This document shows, one piece after another, positions 33,347-51,456 of a stretch of 64,000 bases of DNA. Origin of the DNA: Escherichia phage naswa; the sequence record MN850595.1, one strand, 5' to 3'. Position numbers and translations under genes: made by a program. How positions within the stretch are numbered: the first letter of the stretch is position 1; every line of letters begins with the position of its first letter. Under the pieces are notes generated by a model. The model was not told where the DNA came from. It worked only from the letters and a program-made list of their open reading frames with translations, and searched no databases.

Positions 33347-33766
33347 ATGAACATTAAATCTAATAATCCGGCATATAGCTTTGATAACGCTTTTTGTCAC
33401 GGTCCGGCGGCGAAAGGATTCGAAATCGATGGTAAACTAATTATTGTCAATGTTGACGGGGAAGAGGTTGCAGTATATCCGGTGGCAGACGTTAAAAGCC
33501 GTCTACAATGCCGCATGGATGTTACCGCCTATCAGCTTGATCCGGTCCGCATAGTTGCCCTGGTCCTGGAAGAAGAAATTAAAGCCATGCACCATAGCAA
33601 CAGATTTATTGGTGACGCGCAGGATAATATGAAAGTATGCCGCCATAAAGTTAATGAAGTGCTTAAAGAGTACGGCTATAAAGATCTTATGATCAAACGC
33701 GAGGAAAAATTCCGCTACCGTAACGACCTGGCAAATCGGATTTTTGAAATATACGAATCATTATAA
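33347..33766 (+). CDS. Hypothetical protein
   Basis: 139 aa ORF with AAGAGG RBS; last gene of plus-strand block. Confidence 0.55.
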   Translation: MNIKSNNPAYSFDNAFCHGPAAKGFEIDGKLIIVNVDGEEVAVYPVADVKSRLQCRMDVTAYQLDPVRIVALVLEEEIKAMHHSNRFIGDAQDNMKVCRHKVNEVLKEYGYKDLMIKREEKFRYRNDLANRIFEIYESL

Positions 33767-33783
33767 TTTTTTAACTGAATTAT

Positions 33784-33810
33784 CAAGGGGCTTAGGCCCC
33801 TTTCTTTTTG
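33784..33810 (+). terminator. Rho-independent terminator
   Basis: AAGGGGC-tta-GCCCCTT followed by TCTTTTTG. Confidence 0.6.
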
Positions 33811-34429
33811 TCTGCTCTTCCCCCCCTACCATAAACGGCCCTACCTGGCAAGTGGAATAATTGACGAGCCATCAATCCCACACACTGTACAAATATACAT
33901 GGAAAATAACTATTGCATAATTTTTCATTGTGTGGTAGCAAGGCCATTTTTACCCGTTTTACCTTCCAAAATTGCACGTAATGCCGCTATTGCACAAATT
34001 TTAACCTGATGCACATCTCCAATATCTTGTCAACAACTAAAAATCTTTATAAGTCATGCACTTACATAACCACAAAAGCGTGTTCTACGTGAAAAATCGA
34101 GTATAACTATAGCCGCCAGATCTCAGAATTTACGTACGCTCACCAGTCTATAGCCTGCTAAGTATTTATTCCAACCATAGAATAACGGAATAGTCAATAC
34201 CTGCATAAAATAATTATTCGTGTAAACTGCATAACATAAATCGGCTAGGATGTCAACATTTTTCGTAAACAGCTCGAAATTATAACGGTGAGTTATAATA
34301 AACAGAGAAATCTTTAGTCGTCTAATGTTTACTGTACATTACTATACTGACTGGAATCATTAGATGACTAAGAGAAAGATAAGAAATCATTAACAATGCA
34401 ATTGTTTTATTCGTAACAATAAGGCAACT

Positions 34430-34680
34430 ATGCAAACGAATGGCATGGCGCGACGGAGTCGCGACATAATATAAAAGCAGTAACCATCACCCCCGTGATA
34501 GTTTGTCTGCAAACTATTAATCAGATCATAGTTGCCTTGTATTTAGTTAATCATGACATAACAAGCAGGGCAACTATAGATCTGCTAATAGTTGCCCTGC
34601 TTTTATATTATGTCATGCTAATTATAATCAGTGCGATTATTGTCATGTATAATTATTGTCATGCAAACGAATGGCATGGC
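34430..34680. repeat. 20-bp direct repeat ATGCAAACGAATGGCATGGC (34430-34449 and 34661-34680) flanking a nested ~64-bp palindrome (34553-34616)
   Basis: Exact 20-bp repeat 231 bp apart; ATGACATAA...GCAGGGCAACTAT-10 nt-ATAGTTGCCCTGC...TTATGTCAT; ATTATTGTCATG also repeated. Confidence 0.6.
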
Positions 34681-34692
34681 TGATTATCGGTG

Positions 34693-34788
34693 TGTAAACA
34701 GTCAATCATGTAAATGGTTAGCATGTGAACAATCAGGAATGTAAACAATCCAGTGTGTAAACTAATAGGTGTGTAAAAGTGTCATGTT
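34693..34788. repeat. Six tandem iterons with 16-bp periodicity (core TGTAAAC)
   Basis: TGTAAAC/TGTAAAT/TGTGAAC units starting at 34693, 34709, 34724, 34740, 34756, 34772. Confidence 0.65.
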
Positions 34789-36265
34789 GTGTCAGTTAGG
34801 TCACATTATGTCAGACAAGTTTTTCTCCTCTTTGTCAAGTGCTGCATGAAAAATTTACAAGCTTGTATGGTAGCATTTTTGCGGCCCTGTTTACATTCAG
34901 GAGTGTATGTATAATCCTTGGTGTGTGGGCGTTTAGACGTCTAGACGGTTGGAAGTATGCAGGTCAATATCTAATCTATTGGCTGCTAACTATATCCCAC
35001 ACAAATGATAAGAAATATAATTGTTATATGCGTAAACTGTAACTCATGTTATCAATCCCTGTATGTATCGCCAGTGGTGCGCATAATGGGTATTATGTTA
35101 AATTGCCCGTAATGATAACTATTCTCACAATGATAGGTATTCTCATTCACCCCCACAAGATAGGTTGCAAATGTTGTGCCACTGTGTGAACGGCCTAGCC
35201 TATTAATTTGCCTCACTGCCTTGATATTTGAGAATTGTTATAAGAATGAGAAGTATTCCCATTTCGTCCGCCTGGCAGCACTCCAGTCGCTACCGGCTCC
35301 TGACAGGGCAGCTCTCCTGTAGGTCAGGTCAAAATCGTGGTAGAATTGGGCCTATTCAGATATTTCTGGCTGACTCTTCAGGTCTGTGTGAGAAAAGCCA
35401 ACCTTTCCGGCGGCGGGGAGGGGTCAATTAAAAAATTTACGTGGTGTATGAAGCGCTCTTCAGGTAAGGCAGGTATTATGTGATGAAACCCTCTTCAGGC
35501 AATGATATTTGTGGGTGTGATATTTGCTGGAAAGCCAGATATGACGGGACTCCCGGCGGGGCAGGGGTAGTACAGACAGGGAAAATATGGGGGATGTAGT
35601 TGGGGAAATTGATCAGGCAGGTAGAGTATGGAATATGTTACAAGTATGTTAAATATGGAGGTTGAATATCTGCAGGATTTGTGTGTAAAATCAAAGACTT
35701 AAGTGGTGTTGTGGTATTTTCTATAAATAATTCAAGTTTAATAGGTAATATTTGTCTCTATCCACTTTGTGTGGTAAACAGATTCAGATGAAATTGGTTT
35801 ACAAGTGTATACATAATATACAAATTAAAGATACAAGAAACCCCCCTCCCCCTTCGGCTACCATTCACCTTTTCCTCTGACTGGTACTTAAACACTTATT
35901 CAGACTCTTCAGGTTATCACCCATATATCATATGGCAGTGACTGGTGTCCTCCGGCCCCTCTTTCGTCACCCGTCCGCTTCGCCATGCTAATGCCATAGC
36001 CAATGGTTCGGTTGTTCACCCTGTTCACTCAGGTGTATCTCCATACCCCTTCAAACCGAAGAGAACAGAAAACCCGAATTACTCGGTAAAAGAAAAGAGA
36101 AGAACTTAATTTTATCAGGATAGGCAAGAATGTCAAGGCATGACTGCTCACTAAACAAGCAAACAGTCATGTGTGGTAGGTAAGTGATTGTGGTGGTAGG
36201 AAATTTAGTTGAAAGATGTGTTATAGGTGCGCTTCCAGCACTTTAGCCGGGCAGCTAATTGTGTG

Positions 36266-36481
36266 TCAGTCTAGCGGTTCATCCTCTACTTCACTGAAAT
36301 CAATGTTCATGGTCTCTTCCCAACCATCGATCTCAGCACAAGAGTGGAGTTCTTTAGGGTTTACTCCCAAAGCCTCAGCAACAGAGTCTATATTTAACAC
36401 CTCTGGCAGGTATGATTCATCGAATTCAAGGTAAATCAGGCCACGAGTGTTGTCAGCTCCACCAAATATCTCTATCTTCAT
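36266..36481 (-). CDS. Small acidic protein
   Basis: 71 aa Asp/Glu-rich ORF; last gene of minus-strand block. Confidence 0.45.
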   Translation of the reverse strand: MKIEIFGGADNTRGLIYLEFDESYLPEVLNIDSVAEALGVNPKELHSCAEIDGWEETMNIDFSEVEDEPLD

Positions 36482-45104: not shown

Positions 45105-45575
45105 CTACTTAAATAGTAGTTCAAAATAGTGCAAAATTAACAGAAGTTGAACTACACCTAGTGCAACGGCGAGTATGTTAATCTTAGAATCGAAAAACTT
45201 CTTAACTTTTACTCTAAAAGGTTCCTTAATGTCCTTTACGATCCTATCTATAGATGACCTCATATCTCTGATTACCATCCTGAACATTAAAGACGGATGC
45301 TCCCCCATCTCTGTAACGGAATCGAAAACATACTCTCTTCGGTCATAAGGGCCGCCAGCTCTGCGTATTAACCTCTCCACAGAGACCTCGAACGTCACAC
45401 CTGTAACGTAATCATCTATAACAAGTCGTGACGGGTCTTTACCTTTACTATCAAGAGGTATCAAAGTTATCTTTCCAGATTTTGTTAAAATTTCCCCTTT
45501 TTCAAGCAAGGTGTACCAATGCTCTCTGCCAAGACTGTTGAGGCACGTTTTTACATATTTAACAAACATCGTCAC
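45105..45575 (-). CDS. Hypothetical protein with C-terminal TM helix
   Basis: 156 aa; hydrophobic C-terminus ILAVALGVVQLLLIL. Confidence 0.5.
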   Translation of the reverse strand: MTMFVKYVKTCLNSLGREHWYTLLEKGEILTKSGKITLIPLDSKGKDPSRLVIDDYVTGVTFEVSVERLIRRAGGPYDRREYVFDSVTEMGEHPSLMFRMVIRDMRSSIDRIVKDIKEPFRVKVKKFFDSKINILAVALGVVQLLLILHYFELLFK

Positions 45576-47720: not shown

Positions 47721-48005
47721 CTACCAGGTTACTGTCAAGTAGGCAACCGTATTATTTTTCTCTGGGGAGATGCCAACAACATCTACCTGCAGACCTCCTG
47801 CCCTTAAATCTCCAACAATGTGCGGGAAGTAATCTGAGAGATGCGATGGTAGATTTATCGAAAATCCGCACCCCAGAAAGCCTGCTAACGCTTTATTTTG
47901 TATCTCCCCTACAATCGCATCATAAATAGAGTTAAGCTCGTCAGGAAGCGTTACAGGACGTTTTAGCGCTAACTGGTGTAATTTGTCCTTAGCACTCATT
48001 TTCAT
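47721..48005 (-). CDS. Hypothetical protein
   Basis: Start set to ATG with ATGA overlap on methyltransferase stop. Confidence 0.45.
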   Translation of the reverse strand: MKMSAKDKLHQLALKRPVTLPDELNSIYDAIVGEIQNKALAGFLGCGFSINLPSHLSDYFPHIVGDLRAGGLQVDVVGISPEKNNTVAYLTVTW

Positions 48006-48535
48006 TTCAGGTCTACCTCTGGAGGTGCCAACCACATAAATGGCGGCAAGTCTAAACGGTTTTTCTTATCCCAGACAAAATATGCATATGCTTGCCCGTC
48101 AGTTCTGCCATTTGATTGAAAAGATGGACGCTTAGATATTGTGATCACAGTGGTAGGTGCATTATCAAGCCACCATTCAAATCTGGCTTTGCTTTCCAGA
48201 AAATTAAGACGCAAAAGCATAATAACTACGTCAGCATCTTTCAACGCCTTGTCTACAAACTCACGAGCCAAACTGTATGGTGGGTTGGTGATAATACAGT
48301 CAACATGGTTGTATTCTGTATTCAGATAGTCAACACCTTCTTGGATTTCTCCCCATGCAGATCCTAACGGCATACGTGAGTAGAACACACCTGAGGCACT
48401 ATTCCTGCAAGGCTCTAAATAGGTCCAGTCTTCTGGGAACGGAATAAGGTCATACAGCCCTTCTGCACACCACTCCGGTGTCACATACTCATCGTAAGCG
48501 TTACGTTGTTCATCAGGTTTTCTAGCACAAGTCAT
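48002..48535 (-). CDS. Small DNA N6-adenine methyltransferase-like protein (NPPY motif)
   Basis: Catalytic-type motif IITNPPY; GGAGA RBS; follows ClpP-like terminator. Confidence 0.6.
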   Translation of the reverse strand: MTCARKPDEQRNAYDEYVTPEWCAEGLYDLIPFPEDWTYLEPCRNSASGVFYSRMPLGSAWGEIQEGVDYLNTEYNHVDCIITNPPYSLAREFVDKALKDADVVIMLLRLNFLESKARFEWWLDNAPTTVITISKRPSFQSNGRTDGQAYAYFVWDKKNRLDLPPFMWLAPPEVDLK

Positions 48536-48550
48536 GCAAATCTCCAGATC

Positions 48551-48576
48551 ATAAAAGCCCTCCGAAGAGGGCTTTA
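48551..48576 (-). terminator. Rho-independent terminator (minus strand)
   Basis: AAAGCCCTC-ttcg-GAGGGCTTT hairpin followed by TTTTAT on minus strand. Confidence 0.6.
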
Positions 48577-48586
48577 GAATTAATGT

Positions 48587-49636
48587 TTAAGCTTCTTCGA
48601 CAATTCCTGCACCCAGGATTTTTTCATTGAGCTCTTTTGCTGTTTTAATAATATTGTCCACCAGACGCTTGCGAGTCTTATCTTTTACCTTAACCTCTTC
48701 ACCGCCGTTCAGGGTTGTCTTCAATTGGGACAGAATGTCTTGAAGTTCAACGACAGAGAATCGCTGCAGATCTTCTGAAGTAATCTCACTCAGGGCAATT
48801 CTGACGGTCTCGCCACTTTCCATCTGCAGATTCAGGAACACAGTGTGAACATCACCTTTCGAACCACCCGCTTTTGCAGATTCAACAGCATGAACTAACT
48901 CATCTAAAGATGTGCACTGGTGAATCTCCGGAAGACCTGCTTCACCTAACACGCCTTCTTCATCACCTTTTGCCAGAAGCTTTTTCGGTTTTTGTCCGTT
49001 CTGGATGCGTTGTATGTTGCCTTCATCCAGAATAATAGCTCCAGTGCGTGCTGCCAGCTCTTCTCCGTCCAACCACACTTCGCCACCAGCTGTGATGGAT
49101 GCGATCTCATCTTCTGTCAGCACCCCACCGTAGTATTTTTCGATCAGGCGTTCAAAACGTTTTTTCCAGTAGCTGACCTGAGTATTCATGTTCACACCGT
49201 TACCATAAGTGCCACCTTGATAGTAGTGGAACATAAACTCTGTGTCCGGAGCCACAGTACGTTCTTTACAACCAAGCCATAAGATTGTTCCAGCAGAGCA
49301 GCACATCCCTTCAGCATGTGCAACAACGCTTGCCTGAGACTCTCGGAATGCCTGCAGATAAGCCATTGCAATGTGCACGCAACCCCCAGGGCTATTGATG
49401 ATCACCCGAATGCTTTCTTCCGGCTGAGCCATACGGATCGTCTGCAGACGAGACATATGATCTTGTAAGTCTTCCAAATCGTCGATATAAAGAACGTGGT
49501 CAACAACAGGTGTTGGGTAGCTGTATGTTTCCATGATACCGCCCGGCATACCAAACATTTTATTACTCATAGGTTCGAAACCGTTCTGTTTTTCTTTCAT
49601 GCCGTGTACCATGGTTCTGCGAGGTGTTAAATTCAT
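48587..49636 (-). CDS. ClpP-like serine protease with ~150 aa C-terminal extension
   Basis: INSPGG motif, Ser in GMCCSAG, His in FMFHYY; AAGGA RBS. Confidence 0.7.
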   Translation of the reverse strand: MNLTPRRTMVHGMKEKQNGFEPMSNKMFGMPGGIMETYSYPTPVVDHVLYIDDLEDLQDHMSRLQTIRMAQPEESIRVIINSPGGCVHIAMAYLQAFRESQASVVAHAEGMCCSAGTILWLGCKERTVAPDTEFMFHYYQGGTYGNGVNMNTQVSYWKKRFERLIEKYYGGVLTEDEIASITAGGEVWLDGEELAARTGAIILDEGNIQRIQNGQKPKKLLAKGDEEGVLGEAGLPEIHQCTSLDELVHAVESAKAGGSKGDVHTVFLNLQMESGETVRIALSEITSEDLQRFSVVELQDILSQLKTTLNGGEEVKVKDKTRKRLVDNIIKTAKELNEKILGAGIVEEA

Positions 49637-49696: not shown

Positions 49697-50008
49697 TTAT
49701 TTAGCAATCACTATGGAATACTTACGATTGTCAGAAGCATCACAACTCAATGATTGCCAGTCTACCACATACCACGTATCATTGTCAACAATTACTTTAT
49801 CGCCTGTTCTGTAGCAAGTGCTGCTTTCAATAATTCGAGACTCGATAAAGAATCTGTGTCGGCGCTCACGTAGCAACGCTAAGTTAATTATATTACCACC
49901 GCTGTCCTTGGTCCACACATTCTTGGATCCCTTATTTGCCAAAATTGTCTCGCCGTTATAGACAAACAGGCAGTATATTTTATTCAGTTTCTCTTGTATT
50001 GTAGCCAT
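49697..50008 (-). CDS. Hypothetical protein
   Basis: 103 aa ORF downstream of minus-strand consensus promoter. Confidence 0.5.
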   Translation of the reverse strand: MATIQEKLNKIYCLFVYNGETILANKGSKNVWTKDSGGNIINLALLRERRHRFFIESRIIESSTCYRTGDKVIVDNDTWYVVDWQSLSCDASDNRKYSIVIAK

Positions 50009-50036: not shown

Positions 50037-50065
50037 ATAATATCTAAAGCTTACCTATTTGTCAA
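50037..50065 (-). promoter_or_regulatory. Sigma70-like promoter on minus strand (TTGACA-17-TATTAT)
   Basis: Reverse-complement consensus hexamers. Confidence 0.55.
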
Positions 50066-50109: not shown

Positions 50110-50898
50110 TTACTCGGAAACAGGGGTCCAAATATGATTTGCACGATCCTCAATAAGATTGAGTGCGATTTGACGACCCAACCCGGAACGAACGACATCG
50201 TCTGGACTATCAAAGCTGATCATTCCAACCTCAGGATCTGGATGACGAGTAAAGAAATCCGTCACCCATGCAAGGCCAGATTTACCAGGGATGTCACGTT
50301 GGCTATTATCACCCATAATTACAAGGGTGGCTTGATCAGAGATCCTTGTGATAATTGACAACATTTCTTCAGGGTTAGTTTGCTGTGCCTCGTCAATCAG
50401 GACAAAGCATCGCTCATCGAAACTACGACCACGAATGCTTTCAACTTCACAAATCTCGATACGACTGTTCTGACCGTCTCCCAGCATTGCGGCAAAAGCA
50501 CCTTTGCCAACACGACGACAAATCGTGTCCATCATGCTTCGAAGATAGGGCCACAGTTTCTGCATTGCATTTCCGGGTTTAAATCCTGAAGTCTTTCCTG
50601 TCTGGACGTAAGGACGTGCAACAATGATCTTATCAATCTCGTTCTTACGCAGAAGATCACCTGCATATGCAGATGCCATAAATGTCTTACCGGATCCAAA
50701 CACACCGTTTACAATAATAATCTTACGTGACCCTAGATAATCAAGATACTTTTGCTGCTTCTTATTCATTGGTCGGAGAGCTGGAGCGGTGTGCTCTCTT
50801 TCGTCAGCAAATTTCTCAGCAGCCTTACGCAGGCGATCAGATTTGCGAGCCTCTCTAGCTTCATCACGCATGCGTTTTGTTTCTTTAGCTCGACCCAT
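50110..50898 (-). CDS. phoH: PhoH-like ATPase
   Basis: Walker A GVFGSGKT, VLIDEAQQ, MGDNSQRDIP motifs; AAGGAG RBS. Confidence 0.8.
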   Translation of the reverse strand: MGRAKETKRMRDEAREARKSDRLRKAAEKFADEREHTAPALRPMNKKQQKYLDYLGSRKIIIVNGVFGSGKTFMASAYAGDLLRKNEIDKIIVARPYVQTGKTSGFKPGNAMQKLWPYLRSMMDTICRRVGKGAFAAMLGDGQNSRIEICEVESIRGRSFDERCFVLIDEAQQTNPEEMLSIITRISDQATLVIMGDNSQRDIPGKSGLAWVTDFFTRHPDPEVGMISFDSPDDVVRSGLGRQIALNLIEDRANHIWTPVSE

Positions 50899-51426: not shown

Positions 51427-51456
51427 ATTATAACCGACTTAACAAAGCTTTGTCAA
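51427..51456 (-). promoter_or_regulatory. Sigma70-like promoter on minus strand (TTGACA-18-TATAAT)
   Basis: Reverse-complement consensus hexamers just downstream of nrdG. Confidence 0.55.

Follow-up and report, generated by a model that had tools for sequence, protein, structure and literature searches.

A ClpP-like serine protease of rV5-type coliphages encoded among nucleotide-metabolism genes, apart from the head module

Described relatives and the locus in phage naswa

The ClpP-like gene of rV5-type phages is already known and has been annotated since 2013, when Table S3 of the genome paper on Escherichia phage rV5 (PMC3606486) gave gp122 (349 aa, 38.5 kDa) the name 'ClpP (ATP-dependent) protease subunit'. 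No experiment on the rV5-type protein was found in the searchable literature, nor anything specific on the function of phage ClpP-like proteins. The best-scoring characterised relatives by profile are the ClpP-related head-maturation proteases (NCBIfam NF045542; PHROGs 1684, 94, 2976 and 133), which are likewise phage-encoded ClpP-fold proteins of the Ser/His type and often bear non-catalytic C-terminal extensions. Cellular ClpP (MEROPS S14; TIGR00493; E. coli ClpP, PDB accession no. 1tyf) shares with the phage protein its fold, the INSPGG motif, the positions of the catalytic Ser and His, the Gly-rich handle segment and helices E-G. A homologous ClpP-like core is also found in the 'ATP-dependent protease' proteins of phrog_1827 (ICP1 gp211, phiMK gp127 and a protein of a T5-like Klebsiella phage), whose genes lie, like that of the rV5 type, in early or middle gene regions and not in head modules.

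In the window analysed here (the whole stretch of 64,000 nucleotides from Escherichia phage naswa, MN850595.1), the gene is a genuine ORF with an ATG start, and the 3.5 kb surrounding it match Escherichia phage inoa (an rV5-like myovirus of Vequintavirus; MN850593.1) at 100% identity; in inoa the corresponding gene is labelled 'ATP-dependent protease subunit' (VOG4573). More than 100 GenBank records carry the protein at at least 95% identity under ClpP-type names, and the phrog_5410 profile is matched over almost its entire length (E=2e-155; protein residues 24-345 against profile positions 4-322 of 323). With the rV5 gp122 annotation, these matches show the protein to be already catalogued, and the gene belongs to the core set of Vequintavirinae-type phages. 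A search of the PADLOC defence and anti-defence families gave no match for it. The original prediction placed the gene between PhoH and a methyltransferase, and outside any visible head cluster. Both statements hold, with one further ORF intervening on the PhoH side:

50110-50898: PhoH gene, upstream of the protease gene (phrog_170, E=4e-75)
49697..50008, minus strand: 103-aa ORF of unassigned function (phrog_5456), between PhoH and the protease gene; no Pfam match
48587..49636, minus strand: coding sequence of the 349-aa (38.5 kDa) ClpP-like protease (inoa_76, rV5 gp122), with a full-length phrog_5410 match
48002-48535: DNA methyltransferase gene, downstream of the protease gene (phrog_799, E=8e-67)

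The 103-aa ORF, whose copy in inoa bears the wrong label 'PhoH-like protein', was considered as a conserved partner or adaptor of the whole family and rejected: tblastn located it in only 119 records, all of Vequintavirus type and all at least 90% identical, and a protein confined to Vequintavirus is not a family-wide partner. The order of the surrounding genes is repeated in Certrevirus phage PBES 02 (PhoH, small ORFs, ClpP-like gene, methyltransferase), with one to four small ORFs separating PhoH from the ClpP-like gene across phages, while in ICP1 RNR and PhoH are followed by two ORFs, then by the gene of the 326-aa ClpP-like protein and that of DNA ligase. Short ClpP-like forms are encoded in the early regions of Pakpunavirus phage phiMK (gp127, 182 aa) and the T5-like Klebsiella phage Roth50 ('Clp protease', 203 aa). 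PhoH was also rejected as a dedicated ATPase partner, its adjacency being loose (1-4 intervening genes) and no PhoH gene being located nearby in Pakpunavirus or T5-like phages; the two genes seem to be neighbours through a common arrangement of modules and not through a joint function.

Alignment of the core of ICP1 gp211 with that of the rV5-type protein (hhalign probability 99.6%, approximately 33-36% identity, residues 44-212) contrasts with their extensions, between which no homology was detected. None of the phrog_1827 proteins carries the rV5-type C-terminal domain, with phiMK gp127 and the Roth50 protein having no extension.

The ClpP-fold core and its C-terminal domain

Residues 59-168 match Pfam CLP_protease (PF00574) with an E-value of 2.1e-12 and 47.7 bits, above the gathering cut-off of 20.2 bits. 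An AlphaFold2 monomer model, built from 21 homologs and read without inspection of its coordinates, divides the protein into four parts, namely a low-confidence N-terminus (1-44), a confident core (45-215, pLDDT of approximately 90), a disordered linker (approximately 216-240) and an alpha/beta domain (approximately 241-343). Foldseek against the PDB returned ClpP structures only, with target-normalised TM-scores of 0.6-0.7 that cover the core alone (approximately 170 residues). The features of the protein are as follows:

49505..49636, minus strand: N-terminal region, residues 1-44; pLDDT below 50, poorly conserved in the alignment, basic (pI 9.4)
48992..49504, minus strand: ClpP-fold core, residues 45-215, from alignments, the AlphaFold2 model and Foldseek
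Residues 81-85 of the ClpP-like core: INSPGG motif
49295-49297, minus strand: codon of Ser114
49226-49228, minus strand: codon of His137
49079-49081, minus strand: codon of Glu186
Residues 203-216, minus strand: family-specific helix with the motif LDExNIxRxQxGQxP, from the alignment and the model
48917..48991, minus strand: linker, residues 216-240; pLDDT approximately 48-52, varying in length and sequence across homologs
48608..48916, minus strand: family-restricted C-terminal alpha/beta domain, residues 241-343, from models and alignment

The E. coli ClpP query sequence carried Ser97, His122 and Asp171 at the expected positions. Ser114 of the phage protein (GMCCSAG) aligns with ClpP Ser97 and His137 (FMFHYY) with ClpP His122, and both residues are invariant in the 21 long-form homologs. 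The motifs INSPGG, G-x-x-C-S-A-G-T and M-F-H-x-Y-Q-G-G are likewise invariant among homologs that are only 40-70% identical overall, and the Gly-rich handle segment reads GGTYG here against GGYQG in ClpP. The third position of the triad is different. ClpP Asp171 aligns with position 186 in both the HMMER and the MAFFT alignments. The present protein and the rest of the rV5 clade have Glu there, 17 of the 21 long-form homologs have Gln, and ICP1 gp211 has retained the Asp of ClpP. On the evidence of these alignments, the acidic member of the triad is not conserved, and where it is Gln activity could be low or absent.

The ClpP Ser and His contexts had been recognised in the original prediction, together with a length about 150 aa in excess of ClpP, and each of these observations is borne out by the above: the core ends at approximately residue 202-215, leaving a C-terminal extension of approximately 135-147 aa, to which are added approximately 25-30 residues at the N-terminus, where the low-confidence region takes the place of the axial-loop region of ClpP.

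The resemblance to ClpP does not extend to the surface on which its unfoldases dock. E. coli Y60, F82, I90, M92, F112 and L114, which we take from ClpP-ADEP and ClpXP IGF/IGL-loop structures to belong to the hydrophobic docking pocket, align with R77, E99, H107, E109, T127 and A/S129, respectively, in an alignment of approximately 20% identity. These replacements lie in ungapped stretches adjoining the INSPGG, Ser and His anchors and do not vary among 12 long-form sequences, and the L48-F49 segment of the ClpP pocket is deleted in the family. P0040, a 204-aa protein that looks like a canonical ClpP, retains hydrophobic residues at the pocket positions. As judged from these alignments, the hydrophobic ClpX/ClpA-docking pocket is lost and replaced by invariant charged residues. 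Canonical ClpP models of NCBIfam scored only 17-39 bits against cut-offs of 228-361 bits (for TIGR00493, NF001368 and NF009205, 33-39 bits against 228-309 bits). Because the docking pocket is replaced and the canonical models are far below cut-off, the label 'ATP-dependent' is unsupported by the sequence and the common database name is probably misleading. Compared with cellular ClpP, the phage protein is thus only approximately 20% identical, has Glu or Gln in place of Asp171, carries a charged and partly deleted docking pocket and a different N-terminal axial-loop region, and adds the conserved helix at 203-216, the linker and a C-terminal domain of approximately 100 aa.

This C-terminal domain is composed of a helix (in the rV5 clade only), a beta-hairpin and two long helices, the latter containing the invariant residues F293, E297 and R322. 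A profile search of 1.84 billion representative proteins returned only 6 representative clusters, the matches being members of the family itself, fragments, and a leucine-rich-repeat protein that aligns over a single strand-helix unit. Searches for structural relatives of the domain gave none that was convincing, the one significant match in BFVD (303 aa) being probably a family member. In most members the domain is acidic (pI 4.1-4.5, net charge -9 to -23). A helix-extended loop-helix motif of the HeH, SAP or Rho_N type was considered for it; a basic surface suited to nucleic-acid binding was not found, only the last two helices of the domain in the rV5 clade being weakly basic.

Head module, capsid protease and expression context

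No head genes were found in the 64-kb window. Its genes are early or middle ones, including rIIA/B, helicases, DNA polymerase, nrdA/B/D/G, thyA, PhoH, methyltransferases and many small ORFs. A complete head module is located approximately 35 kb from the ClpP-like gene in the inoa genome, in the order split TerL, portal (inoa_21), protease (inoa_20), scaffold-like protein (inoa_19; 325 aa, acidic), decoration protein and major capsid protein of the lambda E type. The protease inoa_20, encoded directly after the portal, was identified by Pfam as Peptidase_S78_2 (XkdF-type putative phage serine protease, E=7e-17), and His72 (DAHGEW), His103 and Ser161 (GGLSIQ) are invariant in its family; a sequence search against the PDB gave no meaningful match for it. 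Homologues of inoa_20 are annotated as 'prohead protease' beside 'portal protein' in BASEL Vequintavirus records and as 'capsid protease' in ICP1, where gp125, within the late capsid operon gp122-126, is the predicted maturation protease (PMC7567579). In Certrevirus phage CB7, the virions contain the post-portal 'prohead core protein protease' CB7_5 as well as the homologue of inoa_19 (PMC7344957). The XkdF-type protease and the ClpP-like protein are both phage proteases of the Ser/His type, but they belong to unrelated fold families, and the former, unlike the latter, is encoded directly after the portal, late, virion-associated (CB7_5) and annotated as a prohead or capsid protease.

The ClpP-like protein was absent from the published virion proteomes consulted: gp122 is not among the 19 proteins of the rV5 MudPIT list, and no ClpP-like protein is among the 26 of the CB7 MS list, in which the sole protein encoded outside the structural modules, CB7_55, differs from it in size and VOG. 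Prohead proteases often leave the capsid, and absence from mature virions is for this reason weak evidence when taken alone. Taken together with the complete and conserved head module, it makes a relocated prohead protease unlikely.

Profile scores nevertheless show where the sequence has its closest affinities. The best NCBIfam match was NF045542, 'head maturation protease, ClpP-related', at 60.3 bits (E=2e-16), below its cut-off of 120 bits, and a model of ClpP-like prohead protease/MCP fusions scored 52 bits against a cut-off of 475. After two self-families, the PHROG ranking consisted of head-maturation proteases throughout (phrog_1684, phrog_94, phrog_2976, phrog_133). Judged by these profiles, the protein has more in common with phage head-maturation proteases of the ClpP type than with cellular ClpP, and by curated thresholds it belongs to neither. 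From the head-maturation enzymes it differs in reaching half of the cut-off score, in the location of its gene outside the head module, in the presence of a separate capsid protease, in not being found in virions, and in the expression of its ICP1 homologue before the capsid genes.

The expression context was examined through predicted signals on the coding strand:

50037..50065, minus strand: predicted sigma-70-type promoter-like site (TTGACA-N17-TATTAT, 11/12) in the gap between PhoH and the 103-aa ORF, equal to rV5 P121
49643..49647, minus strand: Shine-Dalgarno sequence AAGGA, with a 6-nt spacer to the ATG of the protease gene
48551..48572, minus strand: predicted intrinsic terminator hairpin (GCCCTC-TTCG-GAGGGC-TTTTAT), 15 nt past the stop codon, equal to rV5 t122

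A second promoter-like site (12/12, intergenic, 51456-51427) coincides with the predicted rV5 promoter P118. These two sites, the strongest sigma-70-type matches on this strand, are both intergenic. Promoter-like matches are, however, no more numerous in the region than expected from shuffled sequence, and the sites are for this reason leads only. Promoters P118 and P121, as well as terminator t122 directly after gene 122, have been predicted for rV5 (Table S4, PMC3606486). The automatic scan missed the terminator hairpin, the T-run of which is short. The predicted transcription unit consists of the sigma-70-type promoter, the 103-aa ORF and protease gene, and the terminator. In rV5, the T4-like late-promoter motif occurs upstream of structural genes 27-66 only (PMC3606486). 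Timing comes from a distant homologue only, ICP1 gp211, whose extension is non-homologous: this 'ClpP ATP-dependent protease subunit' is classed as 'Middle-late', as are nrdB (gp204) and PhoH (gp208), whereas the genes of the capsid operon gp122-126 are in the late class (PMC7567579). The protease gene sits, and is probably expressed, with the genes for enzymes of DNA-precursor synthesis rather than with the capsid genes.

Proposed role and alternatives

The reading preferred here, at a probability of roughly 55%, is that of a ClpP-fold serine peptidase with an accessory function, not part of the virion, that acts in mid-infection and independently of an unfoldase and whose acidic C-terminal domain recruits a partner or substrate or gates the active site. 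The peptidase would be made together with the nucleotide-metabolism block and, going by the altered pocket, would need no host AAA+ unfoldase (ClpX or ClpA). It would presumably oligomerise as other ClpP-fold enzymes do and cleave peptides, unfolded proteins or specifically recruited proteins in the cytoplasm. The acidic domain, on its flexible tether, may bring in a protein substrate or partner or control access to the active site, and the invariant R77/E99/H107/E109 surface in place of the docking pocket perhaps contributes to this recruitment or access control. As its sequence is closer to head-maturation proteases than to cellular ClpP, the family may descend from an ancient protease of the prohead type that has since taken on a task inside the cell. 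A more specific form of this idea, in which such a redeployed enzyme acts free in the cytoplasm during mid-infection, without an unfoldase, and recruits specific host proteins (e.g. defence or nucleoid-associated) or phage proteins through its acidic C-domain, is put forward tentatively and is on balance doubtful.

The two functions suggested in the original prediction, a relocated prohead protease and a hijack of host proteostasis, have both been weakened. In the former, which would make the protein a relocated or second prohead protease, the core would work within the prohead, cleaving scaffold or capsid proteins there, and the helical domain at the C-terminus would serve in capsid targeting or as a scaffold-like part. 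The layout of protease, linker and helical C-terminal domain does resemble that of protease-scaffold fusions, the best non-self profiles are all of the head-maturation kind, and a protease that leaves the capsid would likewise be missing from mature virions. A search for portal, scaffold and capsid genes elsewhere in the genome, as had been proposed, upheld the location of the gene outside a head cluster and at the same time told against the prohead reading: the slot after the portal, with the scaffold-like protein next to it, is filled by the XkdF-type protease with its conserved His and Ser, its capsid or prohead annotation in ICP1 and BASEL phages and its CB7 homologue in virions. The ClpP-like gene, by contrast, is in the nucleotide-metabolism arm behind a predicted sigma-70-type promoter and not a late motif, its ICP1 homologue is middle-late and not late, every head-maturation model stays below its cut-off and neither virion list contains the protein. 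A role in proheads is accordingly considered unlikely. Also unlikely, and somewhat more so, is a catalytically weak or dead ClpP-fold protein that binds or sequesters its targets, or acts as a decoy or assembly factor, through the C-terminal domain. The prevalence of Gln at the third triad position speaks for it, as does the strongly acidic and family-specific character of the domain, which is what would be expected of a binding module; however, the invariance of Ser114, His137 and their surrounding motifs against such a divergent background is hard to explain without catalysis, and the third position is acidic both in ICP1 and in the rV5 clade.

The hijack of host proteostasis, by which the protein would serve as an alternative proteolytic core on host ClpX or ClpA, or form mixed rings with host ClpP, and so redirect ATP-dependent degradation, is very unlikely. 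It draws on the ClpP fold with its intact Ser and His and Gly-rich handle segment, on the CLP_protease match above cut-off and on the name 'ATP-dependent protease subunit' in more than 100 records. Against these stand the invariant Arg, Glu, His, Glu and Thr at docking-pocket positions together with the deleted pocket segment, the unconserved N-terminal axial-loop region of low model confidence, and the canonical ClpP equivalog and subfamily models, none of which exceeds 39 bits. Furthermore, no phage unfoldase of the ClpX/ClpA type is encoded adjacent to the gene, and PhoH, at variable spacing, belongs to a different ATPase family. Host-protein degradation of some other kind may occur, although nothing found here speaks for it directly.

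As an uncharacterised but ordinary accessory protease, the ClpP-like protein is in itself not surprising. Its gene is, however, a conserved core gene in coliphages that are candidates for therapy (rV5, BASEL phages Bas48-59 and relatives), with related genes in ICP1, Pakpunavirus and T5-like phages. From the name 'ATP-dependent Clp protease subunit' one would expect host ClpX or ClpA as partners, for which the sequence lends no support, and dropping this expectation directs attention to a stand-alone protease with a recruitment domain of its own.

According to a 2026 preprint, some CBASS systems are activated when phage proteases cut a loop of the CD-NTase (PMC12991175). The EcCdnG operon restricts Vequintavirinae phages Bas48-59 with a specificity different from T4 gp21, and the Vequintavirinae protease was not named (PMC12991175). 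Phages of the rV5 type would offer at least two candidates for the EcCdnG trigger, the XkdF-type capsid protease and the ClpP-like protein, as a testable link and not a result; the ClpP-like protein, if it is a cytoplasmic protease, could be the Vequintavirinae activity that trips this protease-sensing system. Since phage proteases trigger some CBASS systems that restrict exactly these Vequintavirinae, Bas48-59, the question of which proteases such phages express, and when, is of practical relevance.

Small ORFs and a predicted promoter around the ClpP-like protease gene

The minus-strand region around the gene for the 349-aa ClpP-like protein contains the following features:

45105-45575 (-), 156-aa ORF, homologue of rV5 gp133, one predicted transmembrane segment
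49697-50008 (-), 103-aa ORF, phrog_5456 (unknown function), upstream of the ClpP-like protease gene
51427-51456 (-), predicted promoter, sigma-70 consensus TTGACA-N18-TATAAT (12/12), counterpart of rV5 promoter P118
52487-53419 (-), 310-aa homing-endonuclease-like ORF, flanked by nrdD and nrdG

The predicted promoter is located in the gap 5' of the small ORFs ahead of PhoH. No Pfam match was found for the 103-aa ORF. Escherichia phage inoa, like several relatives, has it as 'PhoH-like protein', and in other relatives it is named 'ClpP ATP-dependent protease subunit'; both labels look like errors carried over from the adjacent genes. In the product of the 310-aa ORF, DUF723 occurs as two repeats, together with a T5orf172 domain and a zinc finger of the treble-clef type (CapR/DUF4379), and on account of these domains the ORF is identified as a homing-endonuclease-like mobile gene. 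Adjoining this ORF, the inoa record has a 38-aa fragment labelled 'anaerobic RNR'. The 156-aa ORF, also with no Pfam match, is encoded in the early/middle arm, despite the reported detection of its rV5 counterpart in virions by mass spectrometry (two peptides).

Head genes and annotation of related records

Two genes of the inoa record (L003, MN850593.1), with positions in that record, lie outside the window:

L003 20966-21541, XkdF-type prohead protease gene
L003 23110-25540, large terminase gene, in two annotated pieces

The XkdF-type protease is labelled 'hypothetical protein' with an annotated length of only 134 aa. Its ORF can be extended to 191 aa, where it overlaps the 3' end of the portal gene; homologues are mostly of ~208 aa. 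The best PHROG of this protein, phrog_1530, is labelled 'DNA methyltransferase', which appears to be a mislabel of fusion origin, since propagated to some records. An endonuclease gene inserted into the large terminase gene divides it into its two annotated pieces, in agreement with the section on terminase-gene introns in the rV5 paper.

Approximately 19 GenBank records (MG0656xx) are titled 'Campylobacter phage', with Campylobacter jejuni as the stated host. They share 98-100% identity with E. coli phages of the rV5 type over the ClpP-like protease locus, and this host assignment looks doubtful.

Gene-free stretch at the convergence of the gene arms

The plus- and minus-strand gene arms converge at a stretch without genes, where GC skew also flips:

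~33763-36281, gene-free stretch of ~2.5 kb
34414-34680, dense cluster of direct and inverted repeats within it

The direct repeats comprise a 34-nt pair and an exact 20-nt pair spaced 231 nt, while the inverted repeats have exact 18-nt arms (34463-34480 and 34597-34614). No Rfam match to the stretch was found. It is a candidate replication or regulatory region.
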